Origin: Eledone cirrhosa
Lineage: Eukaryota
Length of the DNA: 64,000 nt
Assembly (NCBI GenBank): GCA_964016885.1
Contig: OZ024741.1
Span: forward strand, 75,392,001 to 75,456,000
Direction: 5' to 3'
The notes under the pieces were generated by a model. It did not search any database, was not told the origin of the DNA, and saw only the letters and a program-made list of their open reading frames with translations. How positions within the stretch are numbered: position 1 is the first letter of the stretch; each line of letters opens with the position of its first letter. The position numbers and the translations under genes were made by a program. Below, piece after piece: positions 14,283-59,615 of the stretch.

Positions 14283-17200
14283 TATATATACATAAATTTC
14301 GATATGATGGATGGACTAAGGAATTTCTGGAGAGCCTGAAGAATCTGGACACTCGAAGATAATGCCAAAGATAACGACAAATTCACCTCATACTGCCGGA
14401 CGAAAGGGCAAGGCCCCCTCCTCTTTCTTGCAGCCGCGGATGGCCAACATAACCCCAACCCCATCCCCATCACCCCTCCCTGCGCCTCACCCACCAAACG
14501 CAATCCAAAACTTCAGAGTTGGTACCATAAATGTAGGCACCTTAAAAGGCCGCTCTAACGAGGTTGTAGAAATGCTTCAACGTAAGGTCGTTGATGTTTG
14601 CTGTATCCAAGAGATCAGGTGGAGGGGCGGGTCTGCTAAATTCATTGTGGGTAAAAAACGATGCTATAAACTTTTCTGGGTGGGAAATGACAATGGGCTG
14701 GGTGGGGTAGGAATCATGTTAGCAGAAAAATGGGTCGATAAGATAATAGACGTAAATAGAGTGAATGATAGAATAATTAAAATAAGACTTGTTCTAAATA
14801 GAACTACTGTGACAGTAATATCTGCGTACGCACCCCGATCCGGACTGCCTGGCGCTATAAAAGACAGATTCTATGAGACACTGATGCTCACTACCTCCCA
14901 AATAACCGACAGTGACTATATAATTATTGCTGTTGACCTAAATGGTCACATTGGACAACATTGTGACGGTTATAATGGAATCCACGGAGGCTATGGGTTT
15001 GGTACTAGGAATGAGGAAGGCTCCAGAATCCTGGAATTCTGTGATACAAATAACCTAACTATCTGTAACACTAACTTCAAAAAATGAGACAATCACTTGA
15101 GCACCTACAGATCAGGGGAACATACCAGCCAGGTAGATTATATCCTTACCAGAAGACGTGACAGAGTGTCTGTTGTAAACACTAAATCCCTTTCGACAGT
15201 AAGGAAGAGCATTTAGAGTCGTACAATATAGAGGAATAGTGGGAATTCCTGAAAGCAAACCTGTTGATGGCGGCAGACAAAGTCTGTGGCTGGAGCAGGC
15301 CTATAGGCAGGAGGGGAGTAACATGGTGGTGGAACAGTAAGGTGGAGGAGTCAATTAAGGCCAAAAAGCAGGCTTGGAAAGTATGGCGGGATGGGGGAAG
15401 TAGAGAAGACTATCAAGTGGCCAAGAGGAAAGCTAGGAGACAAGTGTACTTCGCAAGAAGGAAAGCAGAGGAAAGAAAGTTCAAGCATGTTCTACAACGC
15501 GAGGACCAAAAACGTGAGGTGTTCAGGATTGCTAGGCAATGTGTCAAGGAAAACCGTGATATTGTCGGGGAGAAGTGTGTAAACTTGCCATCACTGACGC
15601 TGATAAGAAGGTAGCTTGGAAGTGTCACTACGAAAGGCTACTAAATGAGGAGAATAAATGGGAGAAAGACAGTCTGCCCCACATCGACCCAATAGAGGGA
15701 CCAGCAGTGTTAGTCGAAGGTAGTATAATAAGTAAGGCAATCAAAGATATGAAGACGGGTAAGGCGGCTGGGCCTTCGGAAATAGTTGCTGAAATGCCGA
15801 AAGCTTCTGGAACCGTGGGACACACTATGGTCACCCGGATAGTAAACCAAGTCATACAGAATGGGGTTGTTCCGAAGGACTGGCGTAGCAGCATCATCAT
15901 TAACTGCTACAAGGGTAAAGGAGATGCCCTAGATCGGAGTAACTATAGAGGCATTAAATTAATCGACCAGGTCATGAAGGTCACAGAAAAAGTAATAGCG
16001 CAACTAATCAGAGAGAGAATTGATCTAGATGAAATGCAGTTCAGGTTTGTGTCAGGTAAAGTACCACAGACGCTCTTTTCATTGTACGACAACTGCAGGA
16101 GAAGTACCTAACTAAAAGTAAACCCCTATACTTAGCTTTTGTCGACTTGGAGAAAGCCTTCGACAGAGTCCCCCGTTCCATTATCTGGTGGGCTCTTAGA
16201 AAACTAGGTGTTGATGAATGGCTTGTGAGAGCTATACAAGCCATGTATAAAGAAACAGTCAGCAAGGTTAGAATTAACAACGAATATAGTGAAGTGTTTA
16301 GCGTAAAAGTTGGTGTTCATCAGGGCTCCGTTCTTAGCCCCCTACTATTTATTATTGCCCTTCAGGCTATAACAGTGGAGTTCAAGACTGGCTGCCCATG
16401 AGAACTCCTATACGCAGATGATCTAACGCTCATAGCTGAATCAATGGCCGAACTAGAGAAGAAACTCCAAACATGGAAGCACGGCCTAGAATCAAAAGGC
16501 CTTAAAATTAACCTGTCTAAGACTAAAGTTCTAGTTTGTAGGAAGGAAAATAGGGCACCGGTCCCATCCGGGAAGTGTCCATGCTCAGTGTGTAGGAATG
16601 GAGTAGGTAGAAACTCCATTTTATGTCCCAAAAGCAAAGAATGGGTGCATAAAAGATGTAGTGGGATCACAGGTAAGCTAACTAAGAACATAGATTTTAT
16701 ATGTGGCCGGTGCTCTGGTGCAATAAGTAGCAGCAAGTGCCCACAGAATACTAGCTCACTCCATTGCACAGATGGTTCTATACAAATAGTGGACAGCTTC
16801 CGTTACCTGGGTGACAAAATCAGCAGTGGGGGAGGGTGCTCTGAAAGTACAGTAGCTAGAGTCAGAACTGGATGGAAAAAGTTCAGAGAGCTTATACCAC
16901 TATTAGCCGCTAAAGGGTTCTCCCTAAAAATGTATGATGCCTGCATACGAACAGCAATGTTGCATGGCAGTGAGACCTGGGCATTGTGTGCAGAGGATAT
17001 ACGCAGACTGGAGAGGAACGAAGCTTGCATGCTCCGCTGGATGTGTAATAGTAATATACGTGAACGGCAAAGCATAAACGAACTAAGGGAAAAATTAGAA
17101 ATAAGAGGGATCAGATGTTTTTTACTCGAGAGAAGACTACGTTGGTATGGTCACGTGATGCGCATGAAAGACGACAGCTGTATAAAAAAGTGCAGGGCAA

Positions 17201-17718
17201 TAAAAATAGACGGTAGCCACGGAGTAGGCAGACCCAGAAAAACCTGGGATGACTTGATAAATTCCGACCTCACACACTTACACCTCTCCAAGACAATGTC
17301 ACTTGACCGAGACCTTTGGAGCTACACAGTAATAGAGAAGACCCACCTTACCTAAGTACAAAGTGAAACCTACTACAGTCAGTAGGCACCTCTAACTAAA
17401 TGCACCCCCGTCCCACTACCCCCACCCAATGCACACAACCCCTTTCAATGTAAAGTTATGTTGGTACCACAACATCCAGCCTGAAACAAATGAGGTCGTG
17501 TAGGTGTCACGACAAAAAAAAACACACAGTCCATGCTGTAATGTGGCCGTGTAAATGTAGCTGTAAATGTGGTTGGTGTTAGGAAGGACATCCAGCCGTA
17601 GAAAACCCGCCAGACGGTCCTATGTGAGCAAGACAACCACTCTTGCCTCAAGTGGGAAAACTCCCGTCCAAACCCATGCAAGCGTGGAATGTGGATATTA
17701 AACGATGATGATGATGAT
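14283..17718 (+). mobile_element. Near full-length RTE-clade LINE (APE endonuclease + RT + PHD finger), pseudogenised
   Basis: EN ORF 14362-15087 (GTINVGTL, CCIQEIRW, SAYAP, DLNGHIG); RT pieces 15264-16401 (NYRGIKL, FVDLEKAFD, QGSVLSP, YADD); 16444-17355 C-terminus; internal deletion near 15183; (GAT)n tail. Confidence 0.95.
14362..15087 (+). pseudogene. RTE apurinic-like endonuclease domain
   Basis: Exo/endo/phosphatase motifs in the ORF; premature TGA. Confidence 0.9.
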
Positions 17719-19299
17719 ACATATATATGTGTGTGTGTGGGTGGGGAGGGGTGAGTATACATGCACATACGTAAACTTGGAAAATTTTAGGTGTCATCAG
17801 GTTTAAAAATAACAAAGACATAATGTCTGTTATAATGGCACCCCTCACCCCGATGATTCTAAGGAATCAGTGATCAATATATATAGTATACATTGGAATT
17901 ATCTGACATTGGCATTATCAGTAAGAAAATTTTAGATAAAATCATCCCACAGATTAAACACAAGATATACCTTAAACAATGGGGAAATACGGGTGAAGTT
18001 ATTGAATGGTTGAAAGATATCAAGAATAACAAGGACAAAAAATGTATTCAATTTGATATCAATTCATACTACACCTCTATTTCCCCTATCCTATTAAATA
18101 AGGCACTAATCATGGCCATGAACAATAGCGACCTGACTAGAACCCAGATTGATGTCATCCTTGCGGCCCGTAAAACCATAATCACCTTTGAAGACCAATT
18201 ATGGACCCGCAAGGATACGCACAACAACTTCGACATAACCATGGGGTCTAGTGACTCGGCGCAGGTCACTGATTTGGTCGGCCTATACTTACTTAATGAA
18301 ATCCATAAGGACCTTCCATACCTCAACGGTGGTTTGTACCGCGACGATGCACTTCTACTTATAGAATATAAAAAATTCAATATAGAAAGAACTAGAAAAC
18401 TATTGCATAGGACATTCAAAAACTATAACCTTAGTATCACCATGGACAAAAACACTAAAAACGTTAACTTCCTAGACGCCACACTATACCTAGACTCAAA
18501 GATATATACACTTTTCCATAAGCCTAACGAAAAACTCATTTACGTAGATACCAAGTCTAACCACCCTAGATCAGTATTAAACTCTATCCCTAAGGGGGTA
18601 TCCAATATAATCTCTAATCTATCCTATGACGCAAACATATTTAGCAAAAACTCGCAATATTATAATCAAGCATGAGCTAGATCTGACCATAATATAGAGA
18701 TTGAGTTCCTACCTACGAAAACACATAGCTACAACATTATCTCGCACAATATGTTCATGAGGAAACCTAGTAATAAGAATAGCATCCACACACACACTAA
18801 AACGGAGGATGCCATCAAAAGTAACCCTTACCACAAAACTACCGTAGTACCTTAAGAGGAAACAACACACCAAACACTAAAAACAAAAATAGAAGAAGAA
18901 ATAATACATTTTTCAACCCTCCTTTCAACCTAAACGTCTCTACCAACATACCTAGGGCTTTCTTCTCACTACTAGATAAAAACTTCCCTCTAGAACACAA
19001 GTACCATAACCTTTTAAACAAAAACACTATTAAAATCTCCTACTCTACGACGCCTAACATAGCATACCACATAGCTAGTAGCAATAAAAGAAAAATTAGT
19101 TCTTGCTTCCAACAAACTAAATCGCAGCAGGGGGTAAACCCTCAAAATAACTCTGTAGCAAGTAACCCTAGTAACGGCAGTAATAGTAGTAATAGCACTA
19201 GTATAAGCAATAACACCGGGGACGACAACCCCCATATCCAAAATCCTATAGCTACCACCCGGACTTCTACACATTTTAACCAACAGACTAGCACCCAGA

Positions 19300-19733
19300 A
19301 TAATTGTAACTGTAGAGCAAATAGAACCTGCCCTTTAGATAAGAAATGCTTAATCAAGGATATCATATACTCATGCACCGTCACAACTAGCAACTCTTCA
19401 GAATCCTATGTAGGCTCCACGTCTAGCTGCTTCAAAACCAGGTATAATTCGCACATCCACTCATTCAAAAAACACAGTCTAGCCAACTCCACCTCACTAT
19501 CTAGCTACATACACTATCTAAAAACTAAAAATAAATCTTACACACTTAAATGGGAAGTGATAGGTAGCGCGACTTCGTACAAACCACCTAATAAATTTTG
19601 TAATCTCTGTCTACTAGAGACCCACACTATTATCTTCTCTAACCATAACCTACTTAACAAAAAATCTGAAGTGTTCGCGACTTGCCAGCACCGCTTCACA
19701 CATTCCTTCCAAAACTTTAAACCCTATATATAG
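19300..19733 (+). pseudogene. GIY-YIG endonuclease of PLE (open frame without start codon, absent from the ORF track)
   Basis: Manual translation NCNCRANRTCPLDKKCLIKDIIYSC...YVGST...FKTRYNSH...FCNLCLLE...LLNKKSE. Confidence 0.9.
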
Positions 19734-21156
19734 CAATGTCAGATTTGAACCAGGCACCACCTCTAGCATCGAACACTAAGGGCACACCCTATACCACCTC
19801 CCCACACTCATTGATCCAATATAACACTAATAGTGACATCCCTCTAGAACCTTTCACAGTAGGAATACCCCTTTGTACATCTACTTTCGGTGTGACTGCA
19901 TCCAGTTGCTTGAACTGCATTGCACCACTATTTAATTAATGTATAATTAAAACATTAAATTGATTGTATTGTTGGTGCTCTGTGGATGAAGTGCCATCGT
20001 TGGATAAATGAAAGACTAATTAATTTATTAACATTGATGAGCTATATAACCTGTGTGCTGGGTGCAGTGAATGAAATGCAAATGGCATATGAGTTGTACA
20101 TATATGCAGGAATTGAAGCTCGGATTAGTGACATGATAAGTGTGGATTGACCTCTGGTCTACCTTAGTGATAGTTAACTTTTGACATCCAATGTGACATG
20201 CACTGACCCAGAGCTCACCAGGGATTATTGTAGATAGAAGTGATTCTATAATAACCCTGCCAGGTTCTATGAGTAGACTACAATTACAATGATCATTGAT
20301 TTGGAAATCTGGCTCATCGTGTGAAATATTCAATGGTGGCACTCTATAATGGAGGATGATCACCCTAATATGAACACCATTAATACTTCTTGATAGACTA
20401 CATTATAGTTAAGACACTTTAATTTTTTAGAAACTGTATATAACCATACAAGATAGGGACTATTTTGAGACACCATTTAATATTTAGTCATAGAAATCAC
20501 TGAGTTACCTCCCCTCACGCATTAACTCCCCTTAGTCACACACACACTTCCGGAAAATAATTCGATGCTGATTCTCGCAACTTAACAACCTGCTATATTG
20601 AGCTAAAGACCAACAAACTACGATACTCTAACAGAATCGCCAAACGTCCAATATTGAATCGTCGTAGATTATGTGAGGGGGCATATAATCTGGATATTAT
20701 GCTCCCCGGACTGTGAAAATGGTGCTGTACATGGAATCCATATCATCGCTTTGCTACACATTGCCAATATTTAATATTTATAATATTTCTCCACGCACAT
20801 GCTTCTATAAAATTCGTATAAAGGATTCATTACCAGTTCAACCCCCTTAACACTCTTGTTCGCCCGTTTAAGTGCTTCTATTGCATGTAACACTCTGCCG
20901 CACTATACCATTATATAAACAAGACACACGTGTAACTATTGCACTCAATAACTGCTTATGACTATCCTATCGCATTAATTTCATGTTGTATTTTAATCTT
21001 AATTTTTGATTTTTCCTCTTTTGATATGAATGTAACCTTTAAATGTATACTGCCACACTAAACATTATAATGATTGTCGACCTACCAAGCAACAATGTTT
21101 GCATATATCTCTTGGGTTGAAAAGGAGGTCATATTTGTGATCATCCATTAATAAAT

Positions 21157-21203
21157 TGCTCCGAAGAATGCAAACCTCGGTTTGGAGGAAACAATTGTAA
21201 GCA
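21157..21203 (+). ncRNA. Degenerate hammerhead motif at PLE 3' end
   Basis: TGCT-CCGAAGA-atgCAAACCtcGGTTTGgag-GAAA-CAATTG-TA-AGCA; core has U>C change. Confidence 0.6.
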
Positions 21204-21250
21204 TATAAAGGATTTGATCAGAACTTTGATTCTTATAACTTATATATATA

Positions 21251-21646
21251 TAGTCAGGCTCGATCGATACAGATCAAACCTTGAGCTGATCAATCGCGAA
21301 ATGCGTGTCACACCACAATAAATGTAATGATAATTTGGATATCCAAACTGAACCTGAACCGATAAGGTCTAGTTTCTTGGGTACGTCAACATTTATAAAA
21401 CAAATTTTGTATTTTATCTGATGAGAGCGTACCAGAATTTTGGTACCCTTGAAATATATATAATAAAATAAATATGGTTTTATAAATATAGTTTCCATTT
21501 ATTAATATCATTGATATATATATATATATAATGTTGACGTACCCAAGAAACTAGACCTTATCAGTTCAGTTTGGATATCCAAATTATCATTACATTTATT
21601 GTGGTGTGAGACGCATTTCACGATTGATCAGCTCAAGGTTTGATCT
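21251..21646. repeat. PLE-tail module with ~120-bp inverted repeat (21271-21392 / 21530-21646) around a hammerhead and (TA)n
   Basis: agatcaaaccttgagctgatc...gggtacgtcaacatt versus aatgttgacgtaccc...gctcaaggtttgatct. Confidence 0.88.
21411..21469 (+). ncRNA. Minimal type I hammerhead ribozyme, apparently intact
   Basis: ATTTTAT-CTGATGA-GAGcGTACCAGaattTTGGTACcCTT-GAAA-TATATA-TA-ATAAAAT; predicted cut after 21462; AATAAA overlaps the 3' strand. Confidence 0.82.
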
Positions 21647-21660
21647 ATATATATATATAT

Positions 21661-21859
21661 ATAGGAAAAAGTATGACCCCGACGGCAGAGCTGAAGCCGT
21701 TTCGACGGCTATTTCTGGACTGAGTCCAGAAATAGCCATCGAAACGGCTTGAGCTCTGCCGTCGGGGTCATACTTTTTCCTATTTCCCACTCTACTACCC
21801 TAAGTATTGAGTACCCTGGTGCGTTATGGTCCATCTGGTTCCTTACCACAATTCCTTTG

Positions 21860-21862
<3 letters not shown>
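21661..21862 (+). mobile_element. Fold-back PLE-tail-like module: ~61-bp-arm hairpin (apex 21722) plus unique tail, between (TA)n tracts
   Basis: 21661-21721 is the reverse complement of 21723-21783 with ~2 mismatches; same family at 38561-38760 and 59645-59697. Confidence 0.8.
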
Positions 21863-21935
<73 letters not shown>

Positions 21936-22046
21936 AATTTATATCTAGTAACATATATATACATACAAATGCATATCGATGCTAGCAAATATATAGGTTT
22001 TGTCTTAATAACATTGTGGTTCAATGCATGGGGTTGCAGAACAATA

Positions 22047-22145
22047 ATATAAGAGACGTAAGATAAGAAAATTATAAAATTAACTTACTTACTAAAATAT
22101 ATTTTAGTAAGTAAGTTAATTTTATAATTTTCTTATCTTACGTCT

Positions 22146-22152
<7 letters not shown>
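22047..22152. repeat. Perfect 106-bp spacerless palindrome abutting (TA)n
   Basis: atataagagacgtaag...actaaaata|tattttagt...cttacgtctcttatat, centre 22099/22100. Confidence 0.95.
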
Positions 22153-22240
<88 letters not shown>

Positions 22241-22242
<2 letters not shown>

Positions 22243-22911
22243 TATATTATATTTTGAGAATAAACTCTCAGTCGTTTACAATAATCAAGCTCCAAGAAAA
22301 GGGGCATTTCCGAGCAGTTAAATACATTAAAATATATGATAAACTCGAAACGTGTTTGCATTGCAACAGACAAAGTTAGCTATTAATGAAATAAACTAAT
22401 TAAAGTGAATACAATTTGTCTGTCTCGATACAAGTCAATAAAGACAAGCTTATATTGGCAACGGCCATGATTCCTGGACAGATTTAAATTTCAAAATCCA
22501 AACCTGTTCCGTAGACGAATTTGAACCTCGAAACCTAAATCCGTTTCGCAACGGTGGTATGTGAATTGAAAAATAAAGAGAATCGAAATGGAATTGAAAT
22601 AAAAAGTGAAATACCCAAATCTGCTGTGCTTATCAACAGGAATCCAGTAAAATTAGTACATCTCACATCAAAAATTTTGCAGGTCTGACTACACGTGTGT
22701 AGACAGGCCAAACTAGCCGTCCCGCATTCCCGGTGCTAGAAATAACAGCCATTTATGCGGGATTAAAGATCAGCTCTACAGTTAAGGAGCAATATACTAT
22801 ATTATATTTTGAGAATAAACTCTCACTTGAATTAGTTTATTTCATTAATAGCTAACTTTGTCTGTTGCAATGCAAACACGTTTCGTGTTTATCATATATT
22901 TTAATGTATTA
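22241..22911. repeat. (TA)n-flanked module with internal direct repeat (22241-22270 / 22796-22825) and inverted repeat (22321-22407 / 22824-22910)
   Basis: actatattatattttgagaataaactctca occurs twice; aatacattaaaatatatgataaac...ataaactaatt is inverted at the right end. Confidence 0.8.
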
Positions 22912-23761
22912 TATATATATATATTAATATTTTGATTAATACATAAAATAATGAATCATATTTTCTGAAATATATATATATAACATTTTGTTTAATACTT
23001 AAAATAATTAATCATATTGTCTGACAAATATATATATTCATATGAACTTAAGAAAATTAACAAAGAAAGGACAAAACAAAATGAAAAACAACTTTTTAAG
23101 GAAAAAACCTTAAAAAATTATTTTTTTAAATAAATATATAAATGTAGGACACAGAACTCTATGAGCATCGACCGTTGAGATGGACTTGGGCAGTTTCAAC
23201 CCTTTCCAAAGGTACTGCTGGTCCATCACAGCATCTGACATAAGCCAAACACTATCCAGAGGAGTAAGAGATGAAAGACAAAACATTAATTTATAACTGT
23301 TAATTTTGTGTGATGTTAGGGAAAATGTCTGGTGCCTCTCATAGTACGTGAACACGAGAGAAAGTAAGAAAAAAAAGCAAGAAGGAGAGATTAAGGTATT
23401 GTGTTAGAAAATGTAAGCCTTTACACTAAATGGGGGAGAAGAGAAAAACATGTTCATTCTTGAAGGCCCTTCGTCACTTGAAATGTTTATAAACCGAAAC
23501 TATTTTTCCCATATGTTGAAATACAGAGAGAGAGAGAGACTGTGTGTGAAAAACAGATAGATATCAGCATAGTAATTAACTAGACAGCAAGAGACACTTT
23601 CTCACCAATACTCCAAGGTTGTTGCCAGCTATTGTTGCCAGCTTGCATGTTCATTACTCAAGACAGCATTTGGAAACTGAGAAGTTATATGTTCAGAAAC
23701 ATTGTTCACGAACCGATTTGTTCATGATTAGAGGCATTTCTGAATCAAGTTTCCACTATAT

Positions 23762-24462: not shown

Positions 24463-25529
24463 ATGTTCCATGTTTATACATTTGCATAATTTCAAACCCA
24501 TTCGACTCAAAGTCTGTAAGAATGTTGTAAATGGTCTGACTTAGGTCACTAACTATTTATTTCATTCAAACTCACCCACAATTATGGAAATAATCGATAA
24601 AACTAAATACATGACGTTTTACTCCTCTAATAGAATCTGATTACTTCTCTCTACTCCCTTTAAAATTCGATAAAACTACATACATGCTTACAAACTTCCT
24701 TTAGGAACGCCGAAGAGAAAGAGAGAAGAGAGTGAGAGGGAGAGAGAGAGAACGTTTGTTTTTGAGTGTGGAACGGTCAAACATTTTTTTACTTCAATGA
24801 CAAAGAGAACTTATTACATTTCATACGAAACAACAATTATTCAAAAGCAACAGATAAATTTATTCAACACCAAAAAAAATAGCGATAAATCTTTTTTAAA
24901 ACCTCTCAACGAACGTGGAAGAAAGAAGTATCAGTTTATTTACTATACACAATAATATACTCTATGAGGTCACTAAACCTGCTAGAAACAGCAGCTAACA
25001 CTCCCCCATATCACACCCCTACCTACTATCTTAAATTTAGAAAACATATCCTCTATGAGGTCACTAAATCTGCTAGAAACAGCAGCTAACTCCCCCCCCC
25101 CCTATCACACCACTCCTTACTGTCTTAAATTTAGAAAACATATCCTCTATGAGGTCACTAAACCTACTAGAAACAGCAGCTAACTCTCCCCCATATCACA
25201 CCCCTCCCTACTGTCTTAAATTTAGAAAACACACATTAGACAACCATGCAGAACAACTCCATCGCAGCTCTGTTGTTCGGCTGGCCTCGTCTACGCGCGT
25301 GTTGCGCAAGTACTGTGAAACGATAAATTTCAACACTTCTTTGCACAGAGATAATATCCATAGGCGAAACTACAATTGTCACTGCTGGTGCAGCTCCTGC
25401 TTCGGCAGTCCAGGTCTGCAATTCATTCACCCAGTGCCTAGCAGACAAAAAAGTGCTGCCATAAAATGGGTGGTGCAACCTAACTTTGGTAACTTACTGA
25501 CCCCAAGCAACGCCGGGCTTTAATGCTAG
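24375..25529 (+). mobile_element. Non-autonomous Helitron with 5' microsatellite
   Basis: A|TC 5' end (tctataaaaggcag then (TTG)n(TG)n); 3' GC-rich hairpin ccccaagcaacgccggg followed by CTAG|T; no TSD. Confidence 0.7.
24960..25232. repeat. Three tandem ~90-bp units inside the Helitron
   Basis: ctctatgaggtcactaaacctgctagaaacagcagctaac...cttaaatttagaaaaca x3. Confidence 0.92.
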
Positions 25530-38457: not shown

Positions 38458-38560
38458 GTGTATTTTTGTATGTATATAAATATATACAGAGGGAGAAAAG
38501 AAATGTATGTATAAATATATATGTATATATTCATATACGCATATATATATATATATATAT

Positions 38561-38756
38561 ATAACGGAGGAAATGTGGTAAGGAACCAAGTGGACCATAA
38601 TGCACCAAAGTACTCAATACTTAGGGTAGTAGAGTGGGTAATAGGAACGAGTAGGACCCCGACGGCTGAGCTCAAGCCGTTTCTGGACGGAGTATAATTG
38701 AGTTCAGAATTAGCCGTCGAAACAGCTTGAGCTCAGCCGTCGGGGTCCTACTCGTT

Positions 38757-38760
<4 letters not shown>
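38561..38760 (-). mobile_element. Fold-back module of the 21661 family, between (TA)n tracts
   Basis: 38642-38682 inverted with ~38719-38760; tail homologous to 21784-21862. Confidence 0.8.
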
Positions 38761-38789
<29 letters not shown>

Positions 38790-59216: not shown

Positions 59217-59292
59217 CATATATATATATAAATTTCAATTTGAGTTTCATATATATATATATACATATATATATATATGTATATATATATAT

Positions 59293-59615
59293 GAAACACA
59301 AATTGAAATTTTGAAGACCAACACAATGCGTTATGAAGATTGTTAAAATTGCCAAGATAACAAAAGAATCTTCTTACCTTAGCAAATTTAACGATCTCAA
59401 ATATTTTCAAATTTAAAAACTCATCATCAAGGGGTGACCCTTGATAATGGGTTTTTAAATCCGAAAATATTTGAGATCTTTAAATTTTCTAAGGTAAGAT
59501 TCTTTTGTTATCTTGGCAATTTTAACAATCTTCATAGCGCATTGTGTTGGTCTTCAAAATTTCAATTTGTGTTTCCTATTAAACAATGCTTCAAGCAAGC
59601 TACAAAACTCTGTTA
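59293..59615 (+). mobile_element. Fold-back module: ~140-bp-arm hairpin (apex 59434-59437) plus tail, with a hammerhead remnant next to the apex
   Basis: 59293-59433 is the reverse complement of 59438-59575; arm consensus tTGATGA-t-GGGTTT-tt-AAATCC-GAAA-ATAT-TT. Confidence 0.8.

Follow-up and report, generated by a model that had tools for sequence, protein, structure and literature searches.

Penelope-like elements (PLEs) of the Hydra clade are defined, according to PMC8557442, by a CxCX5C linker, by CxxC and CxH motifs around conserved E and N residues and by the lack of a CCHH pair. Nearly all families of the clade insert in (TA)n, and Hydra-1_Obim is tabulated with this preference in that paper. 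It also describes the PLE unit as a pseudo-LTR beside which lies a 5'-truncated copy in inverted orientation and, optionally, a tail of 30-40 bp, and it names the origin of the tandem and inverted structures and of the microsatellite bias as an open question. In PMC11167929, the anole Poseidon protein was reported to cut and extend both strands at AT-rich DNA in vitro, and the tail was reported to be delimited by two internal sites where RT starts. Non-LTR (animal) retrozymes, as presented in bioRxiv 10.64898/2026.07.22.740005, were used as a further comparison system.

We analysed a stretch of 64,000 nt, which is called the window, and all positions are window positions. It contained a row of six repeat families (P, E, A, B, C and D) with (TA)n between them. 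The features were as follows.

17887-21240, plus strand: family P, a 5'-truncated, degenerate PLE that is Hydra-type by its motifs (translations, longer copies, motifs)
21157-21203, plus strand: hammerhead-like motif of P, core CCGAAGA, with a palindromic stem III (descriptor match, 0/300 shuffles as good)
21241-21252: (TA)6, directly 3' of the P end
21253-21336, plus strand: family E fragment, cut at both ends, an older dispersed repeat (own-genome matches at 88-92%)
21340-21513, plus strand: family A, the tail-less 3' end of a PLE that is Hydra-type by its motifs (own-genome matches, longer copy with PLE motifs)
21410-21470, plus strand: predicted hammerhead of A, a minimal type I motif with its CTGATGA core at 21418 (descriptor, 0/300 shuffles as good)
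21514-21530: (TA)8, between the family A end and the inverted duplication
21531-21645, minus strand: inverted copy of the nearby E|A junction, duplicated from about 21268-21392 (alignment)
21646-21663: (TA)9, between module A and module B
21664-21860, plus strand: family B fold-back (own-genome copies, parent ORF)
21861-21932: (TA)36, between B and C
21933-22147, minus strand: family C fold-back (own-genome matches, contexts, hammerhead)
22148-22241: (TA)47, between C and D
22242-22909, minus strand: family D (own-genome matches, tandem and inverted architectures)
22910-22924: (TA)7, right border of the pile

A preliminary description of this DNA had claimed a nest of at least four unrelated modules (A to D) stacked between TA runs. 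The four modules and the intervening TA runs were all present, and the observation in the window was confirmed as a whole. Stacking was found, but nesting was not: the modules lay side by side between TA runs, no module lay between two halves of another one, and A alone abutted a cut E. The count of four modules stood, although the families that follow the PLE numbered five (E, A, B, C and D), with two of them in module A. The modules were also mutually unrelated in sequence, with no match between any of A, B, C and D at E<1e-3. However, they did not represent separate kinds of element, as they appeared to be Penelope-type ends made by one likely mechanism. We consider it highly probable that six TA-separated families are lined up here as 5'-truncated ends, that P, A and B are ends of Hydra-type PLEs and the rest likely non-coding passengers, and that the row likely arose by successive insertions into the same TA tract through what is likely the PLE mechanism.

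Every module belonged to a dispersed high-copy family. Own-genome searches gave between 599 and 3036 candidates per family, which are first-look totals and not copy numbers, and the best 40 were scored. Identities were taken from these top-scoring loci and are thus biased upward. There were 3036 candidates for A (93-97%), 599 for B (top about 99%), 1766 for C (top about 100%), 2027 for D (89-98%), 2203 for E (88-92%) and 2353 for P (top about 94%). For C, all 40 scored loci, one of which was the window, were 100% identical over 105 bp. The spread from about 90% (E and P) to 100% (C) suggests that the families differ in age and time of arrival. To the right of the pile, the window also carried a 56-bp two-copy tandem repeat (22925-23037) and a 91-bp three-copy tandem repeat (24955-25231).

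The upstream element P had a stop-terminated RT frame (17887-18675), a GIY-YIG frame (18825-19733) and a long 3' UTR up to the tail-less 3' end at 21240. Other P copies ran unbroken from the EN to the identical end at 94-96%. The CxCX5C linker and the CxxC-E..N..CxH motifs were recognised in P. The tail-less end accounted for 15/29 P ends, and a tail end lay about 175 nt further on in 10/12 distinct sites. A candidate second end at reference position 605 was rejected as an internal (TA)4, the genuine tail end being further on. Pfam held no family for the P endonuclease and returned only a sub-threshold, unrelated match for the P RT. Just upstream of P, a degenerate LINE with an (ATG)n tail was found at 15240-17720 (RVT_1 match), which we take to be RTE-like. 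3' ends like that of this LINE formed a recurrent TA-edge group of 49 edges.

The parents of P, A and B had an RT together with a GIY-YIG endonuclease at the C terminus, with stops or frameshifts in the inspected copies. All three carried the CxCX5C linker and CxxC and CxH around a conserved E and N, lacked the CCHH cysteine pair and inserted in (TA)n. Because of these motifs, and by comparison by eye with Hydra-1_Obim, P, A and B were assigned to the Hydra clade as probable members. The RT identity between P and B was about 42%. DKT and RWR were found in the N-terminal part of B; in the P and A copies examined, neither DKT nor RWK was in frame with the element. The clade as described in PMC8557442 has the same RT with C-terminal GIY-YIG, a hammerhead near the 3' end and (TA)n insertion, as well as DKT, which was seen here in B. 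However, the families here were different from those described. B had RWR where the clade has RWK, the hammerhead cores of P and B were variant, and the 3' UTRs were about 0.8-1.5 kb.

Hammerheads near the 3' end of A, P and B are predicted ribozymes, identified with a descriptor that allowed one stem mismatch; a stricter stem rule missed A and P. The P core at 21161 was identical in 27/28 motif matches, and the A core was unchanged in 24/24. The B core was mostly TTGAAAA or TTGACAA (38/44), presumably the U3-A8 variant of the hammerhead. Rfam gave no match in the window at the gathering score and no hammerhead among 101 weak matches in six family loci. At L182:2047-2140 (minus strand), a sequence resembling a tRNA whose anticodon arm contains an insert was above the Rfam gathering score.

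Module A had been described as one fold-back with a hammerhead and a 120-bp inverted repeat. Both features were present, with arms at about 21267-21392 and 21525-21650 that differed by one 6-nt gap and by four mismatches, one of which lay at the TA edge. The repeat was thus real, but the module was not a single element. It was a chimera of E (21253-21336) and A (21340-21513), joined at a 14-nt palindrome (21334-21347). A longer A copy (L267) carried YRDD, CxCX5C and CxxC-E in the same sense as the A end. Several longer E copies had a hammerhead-like core upstream of the window fragment, and no full descriptor match was obtained for E. The right arm was 96% identical to the left arm, while other E copies reached at most 92%. 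Unlike PLE-type arms, the two arms converged rather than diverged, and they spanned the E|A junction. These features indicate that the 120-bp repeat is a local inverted duplication. It would likely have been produced when synthesis switched templates at self-complementary TA. Of 782 TA-bounded segments, 22 had an inverted copy of their whole length in the vicinity, and the 10 of these that were inspected were mostly fold-backs of other repeat families. L074:80-443 and L086:1897-2687 appeared to be TA-bounded local inverted duplications resembling the right arm of module A.

The hairpin with 61-bp arms and a tail claimed for module B was present (21661-21783, two internal mismatches between the arms). 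It was composed of an inverted tail-less arm (21664-21721), a direct arm (21723-21783) and a tail (21784-21860). The window copy was cut inside hammerhead stem II, and only the 3' half of the ribozyme was left. Longer B copies extended upstream into RT and GIY-YIG endonuclease frames. In one of these (L265), a pseudo-LTR with a tail lay ahead of the ORF, and the full hammerhead was held by a long B copy (descriptor, 0/300 shuffles as good). A second, older B-like fold-back with a tail, 84% identical to module B, was located at 38503-38779 in the window. True nesting was seen at L032:1323-2047, where a B fold-back, tailed at both ends, was centred in the inverted pair of another repeat, forming a 720-bp double palindrome. 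In addition, three near-identical B loci (L232-L234) lay within 0.3 Mb of C4, likely as a segmental duplication.

The perfect palindrome of module C was recovered at 22047-22152. The module did not start at 21990, as had been proposed, but at 21933, and family C copies ran through the stretch between these positions. It consisted of a direct arm with a tail (22099-21933) and an inverted tail-less arm (22100-22147). Family C was a non-coding tandem unit of about 520 bp with a predicted type I hammerhead (descriptor, 0/300 shuffles as good), whose CTGATGA core was found in 39/42 motif matches. This motif was upstream of the window truncation, which left the window copy without a complete ribozyme. 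The direct and inverted repeats claimed for module D corresponded to a 34-bp direct repeat and an 88-bp inverted repeat at 98%. Family D was one unit of about 555 bp together with the last 30 bp or so of the previous unit, which was the source of the 34-bp direct repeat, and an inverted tail-less arm from 22823 onward preceded the unit. Units of both C and D occurred as partial tandems.

For C, D and E, the search yielded no autonomous parent, nor did these families match P, A or B strongly. C and D are likely non-autonomous passengers, and for D it is the architecture that suggests the link to PLEs. Compared with non-LTR retrozymes as given in the preprint, C was alike in that its tandem units were non-coding and each had a type I hammerhead, a likeness of sequence. 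However, the C unit of about 520 bp carried a PLE tail and an inversion. D had the architecture, but strict and relaxed descriptors detected no hammerhead in it, and a very relaxed core gave one weak antisense match.

The ends of the fold-backs were then compared across deduplicated loci. Each of A, B, C and D ended at two fixed sites abutting TA. The two sites accounted for 28/41 and 10/41 ends in A, 41/85 and 40/85 in B, 16/42 and 22/42 in C, and 15/68 and 26/68 in D. A further 26 of the 68 D ends were the second site re-read through the terminal repeat of the reference. Back-to-back inverted pairs were found in 12/29 loci of A, 23/48 of B, 18/26 of C, 18/27 of D and 5/22 of P, which amounts to 71/130 loci for A-D and 76/152 with P included. 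In the window, B, C and D each had an inverted 5'-truncated copy at the 5' end. The truncation point varied widely in C and D. Tails were optional across the families and were about 77-175 nt long. This anatomy shared with the PLE unit in PMC8557442 the same two fixed 3' ends, the inverted arm at the 5' junction and the partial tandems. It differed from that unit in the length of the tails, which are 30-40 bp there, and in the convergent, opposite orientation of the module A repeat.

Inverted copies next to TA tracts might also be produced by the library or the assembly as fold-back artefacts. The C palindrome was indeed perfect, and arms that share alleles would be expected from an artefact as well. 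However, in dozens of loci the inverted arms stopped at outer sites that were fixed for the family, the one-sided tail was conserved, the arms of A, B and D carried mismatches, and such an architecture has been published for PLEs (PMC8557442). Since inverted copies ended at family-fixed sites across many loci and had mismatched arms, we regard an artefact as extremely improbable. Another explanation is insertion at TA by several MITEs or foldback DNA transposons that have TIRs and are unrelated to each other. The arms resembled TIRs, and the B turn points clustered at reference 438-447 in most of the 23 pairs, which also speaks for it. This cluster lay inside hammerhead stem II and was likely an RT stall site, and the turn junctions of B varied from copy to copy. 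The ends were asymmetric, with a tail on one side, rather than fixed TIRs at both ends. In addition, junction sequences differed between copies, and lengths varied through 5' truncation. A and B continued upstream into PLE ORFs, by which a DNA transposon origin was refuted for these two families. For the locus as a whole, we consider the transposon explanation very improbable.

The two arms of each fold-back agreed in their alleles. At family-variable sites, 101 arm alleles agreed and 3 differed, where about 40 differences were expected from independent templates; sites within one locus are not independent in this count. An origin of the two arms from different parent copies was not seen in this comparison. 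Since the alleles were shared 101:3, each fold-back was likely made from one template. A likely PLE mechanism is proposed from this anatomy and the in vitro work on the Poseidon PLE. The GIY-YIG endonuclease would nick both strands within (TA)n. RT would begin at one of the two fixed sites of the element RNA and halt early. The other side would be copied from the same template and end at the other fixed site, the second arm being made by snap-back on the newly made cDNA or else by a second priming on the same RNA, two alternatives that the data did not distinguish. In the product, the arms would meet at their 5' ends and their 3' ends would face outward into TA, with a one-sided tail as observed in B, C and D. 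Both flanks would remain TA, so the target would survive and later families could land beside earlier ones.

To place the pile in its genomic context, we sampled arbitrary DNA of the same genome (40 stretches of 10 kb, 400 kb in total), of which 4.4% was pure TA runs. It contained 27 fold-backs, and 14/27 touched TA compared with 16% for random intervals, while 0/27 touched CA. Recurrent family ends were located at 150/445 TA edges, 3/106 CA edges and 0/42 GA edges, where 150/445 is a lower bound for recognised family ends, not all of which are PLE. With ends recurrent in arbitrary DNA alone, the values were 108/445, 0/106 and 0/42. There were 84 end groups, in which tail and tail-less ends were counted separately and some were not PLE. 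B-like ends at 80% or more numbered 15 in this sample (L191-L230), with 1 for E and 0 for P, A, C and D. In the window, a further fold-back with 145-bp arms at 91% lay beside a long TA array (59289-59579).

Clusters of at least four different recurrent ends occurred 7 times in the 400 kb, and 3 of them had six, as in the window. Uniform shuffles gave a mean of 0.7 clusters, and shuffles among real TA edges gave a mean of 4.35 and a maximum of 10. Since 7 lay within the latter range, no extra attraction was needed: piles are common in this genome, and the clustering of TA explains them. The locus had also been called an insertion hotspot. This was correct for repeated landing in one TA tract with TA on both sides, but the site was not hotter than TA clustering predicts.

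It had further been proposed that each insertion preserves or expands TA and may be an engine of the TA abundance. In a self-amplifying hotspot of this kind, insertion would add TA, through duplication of the target or slippage of RT, and attract more insertions, and PLEs would drive the abundance of TA. The flanks of the youngest modules pointed in this direction. The longest TA tracts of the window flanked them, and at least 20 pure TA units lay beside 15/27 C ends and 14/32 D ends, where length-proportional splitting predicts 19% and a whole-run duplication model predicts 31%. However, a cubic preference for long tracts yields 45% without any addition of TA, and the B ends (41/184) fitted plain splitting. 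Family and non-family TA edges were nearly alike (median 10 vs 8.5 units, p=0.08), piles did not exceed the TA-edge shuffles, and 295/445 TA edges had no recognised family end. In L030 and L014, the one readable shared-flank pair and possibly orthologous, the TA-rich run was about 28 nt without the insert and 32 nt with it. Both net TA gain and a preference for long tracts followed by decay fit the C and D flanks, and we regard self-amplification as a possible but doubtful explanation.

Direct comparison of filled and empty sites was attempted with the flanks of those of 309 family segments that had room, tested against the collected loci, and no empty allele was found. The 13 pairs listed were mostly self-matches or pieces of one element, with L014/L030 and L116/L190 as suggestive shared-flank pairs. 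A search with a stretch of the right flank recovered an old repeat (72-85%) but not a second allele. A literature search by title returned no title on PLE-driven TA expansion. The fullest form of the proposal is that every insertion of a Hydra-type PLE or of one of its passengers adds TA and leaves two long tracts where there had been one, so that this guild breeds its own target and feeds the (TA)n load of the genome, with single-template fold-backs and tails 2-5 times the published length. We consider this form unlikely.

These results indicated that the locus is real and is explained by known PLE biology; the families are new, and their kind is known. The main consequence is for annotation: where short hairpins are flanked by TA in such genomes, they should be read as PLE stubs and not as MITEs, assembly errors or precursors of miRNAs. 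The genome provides a rich natural data set for the origin of the tandem and inverted structures of PLEs and of their microsatellite bias, a question to which the long tails and the finding of a likely single template are relevant. A gain of TA at each insertion, if true, would link retrotransposition to microsatellite abundance.
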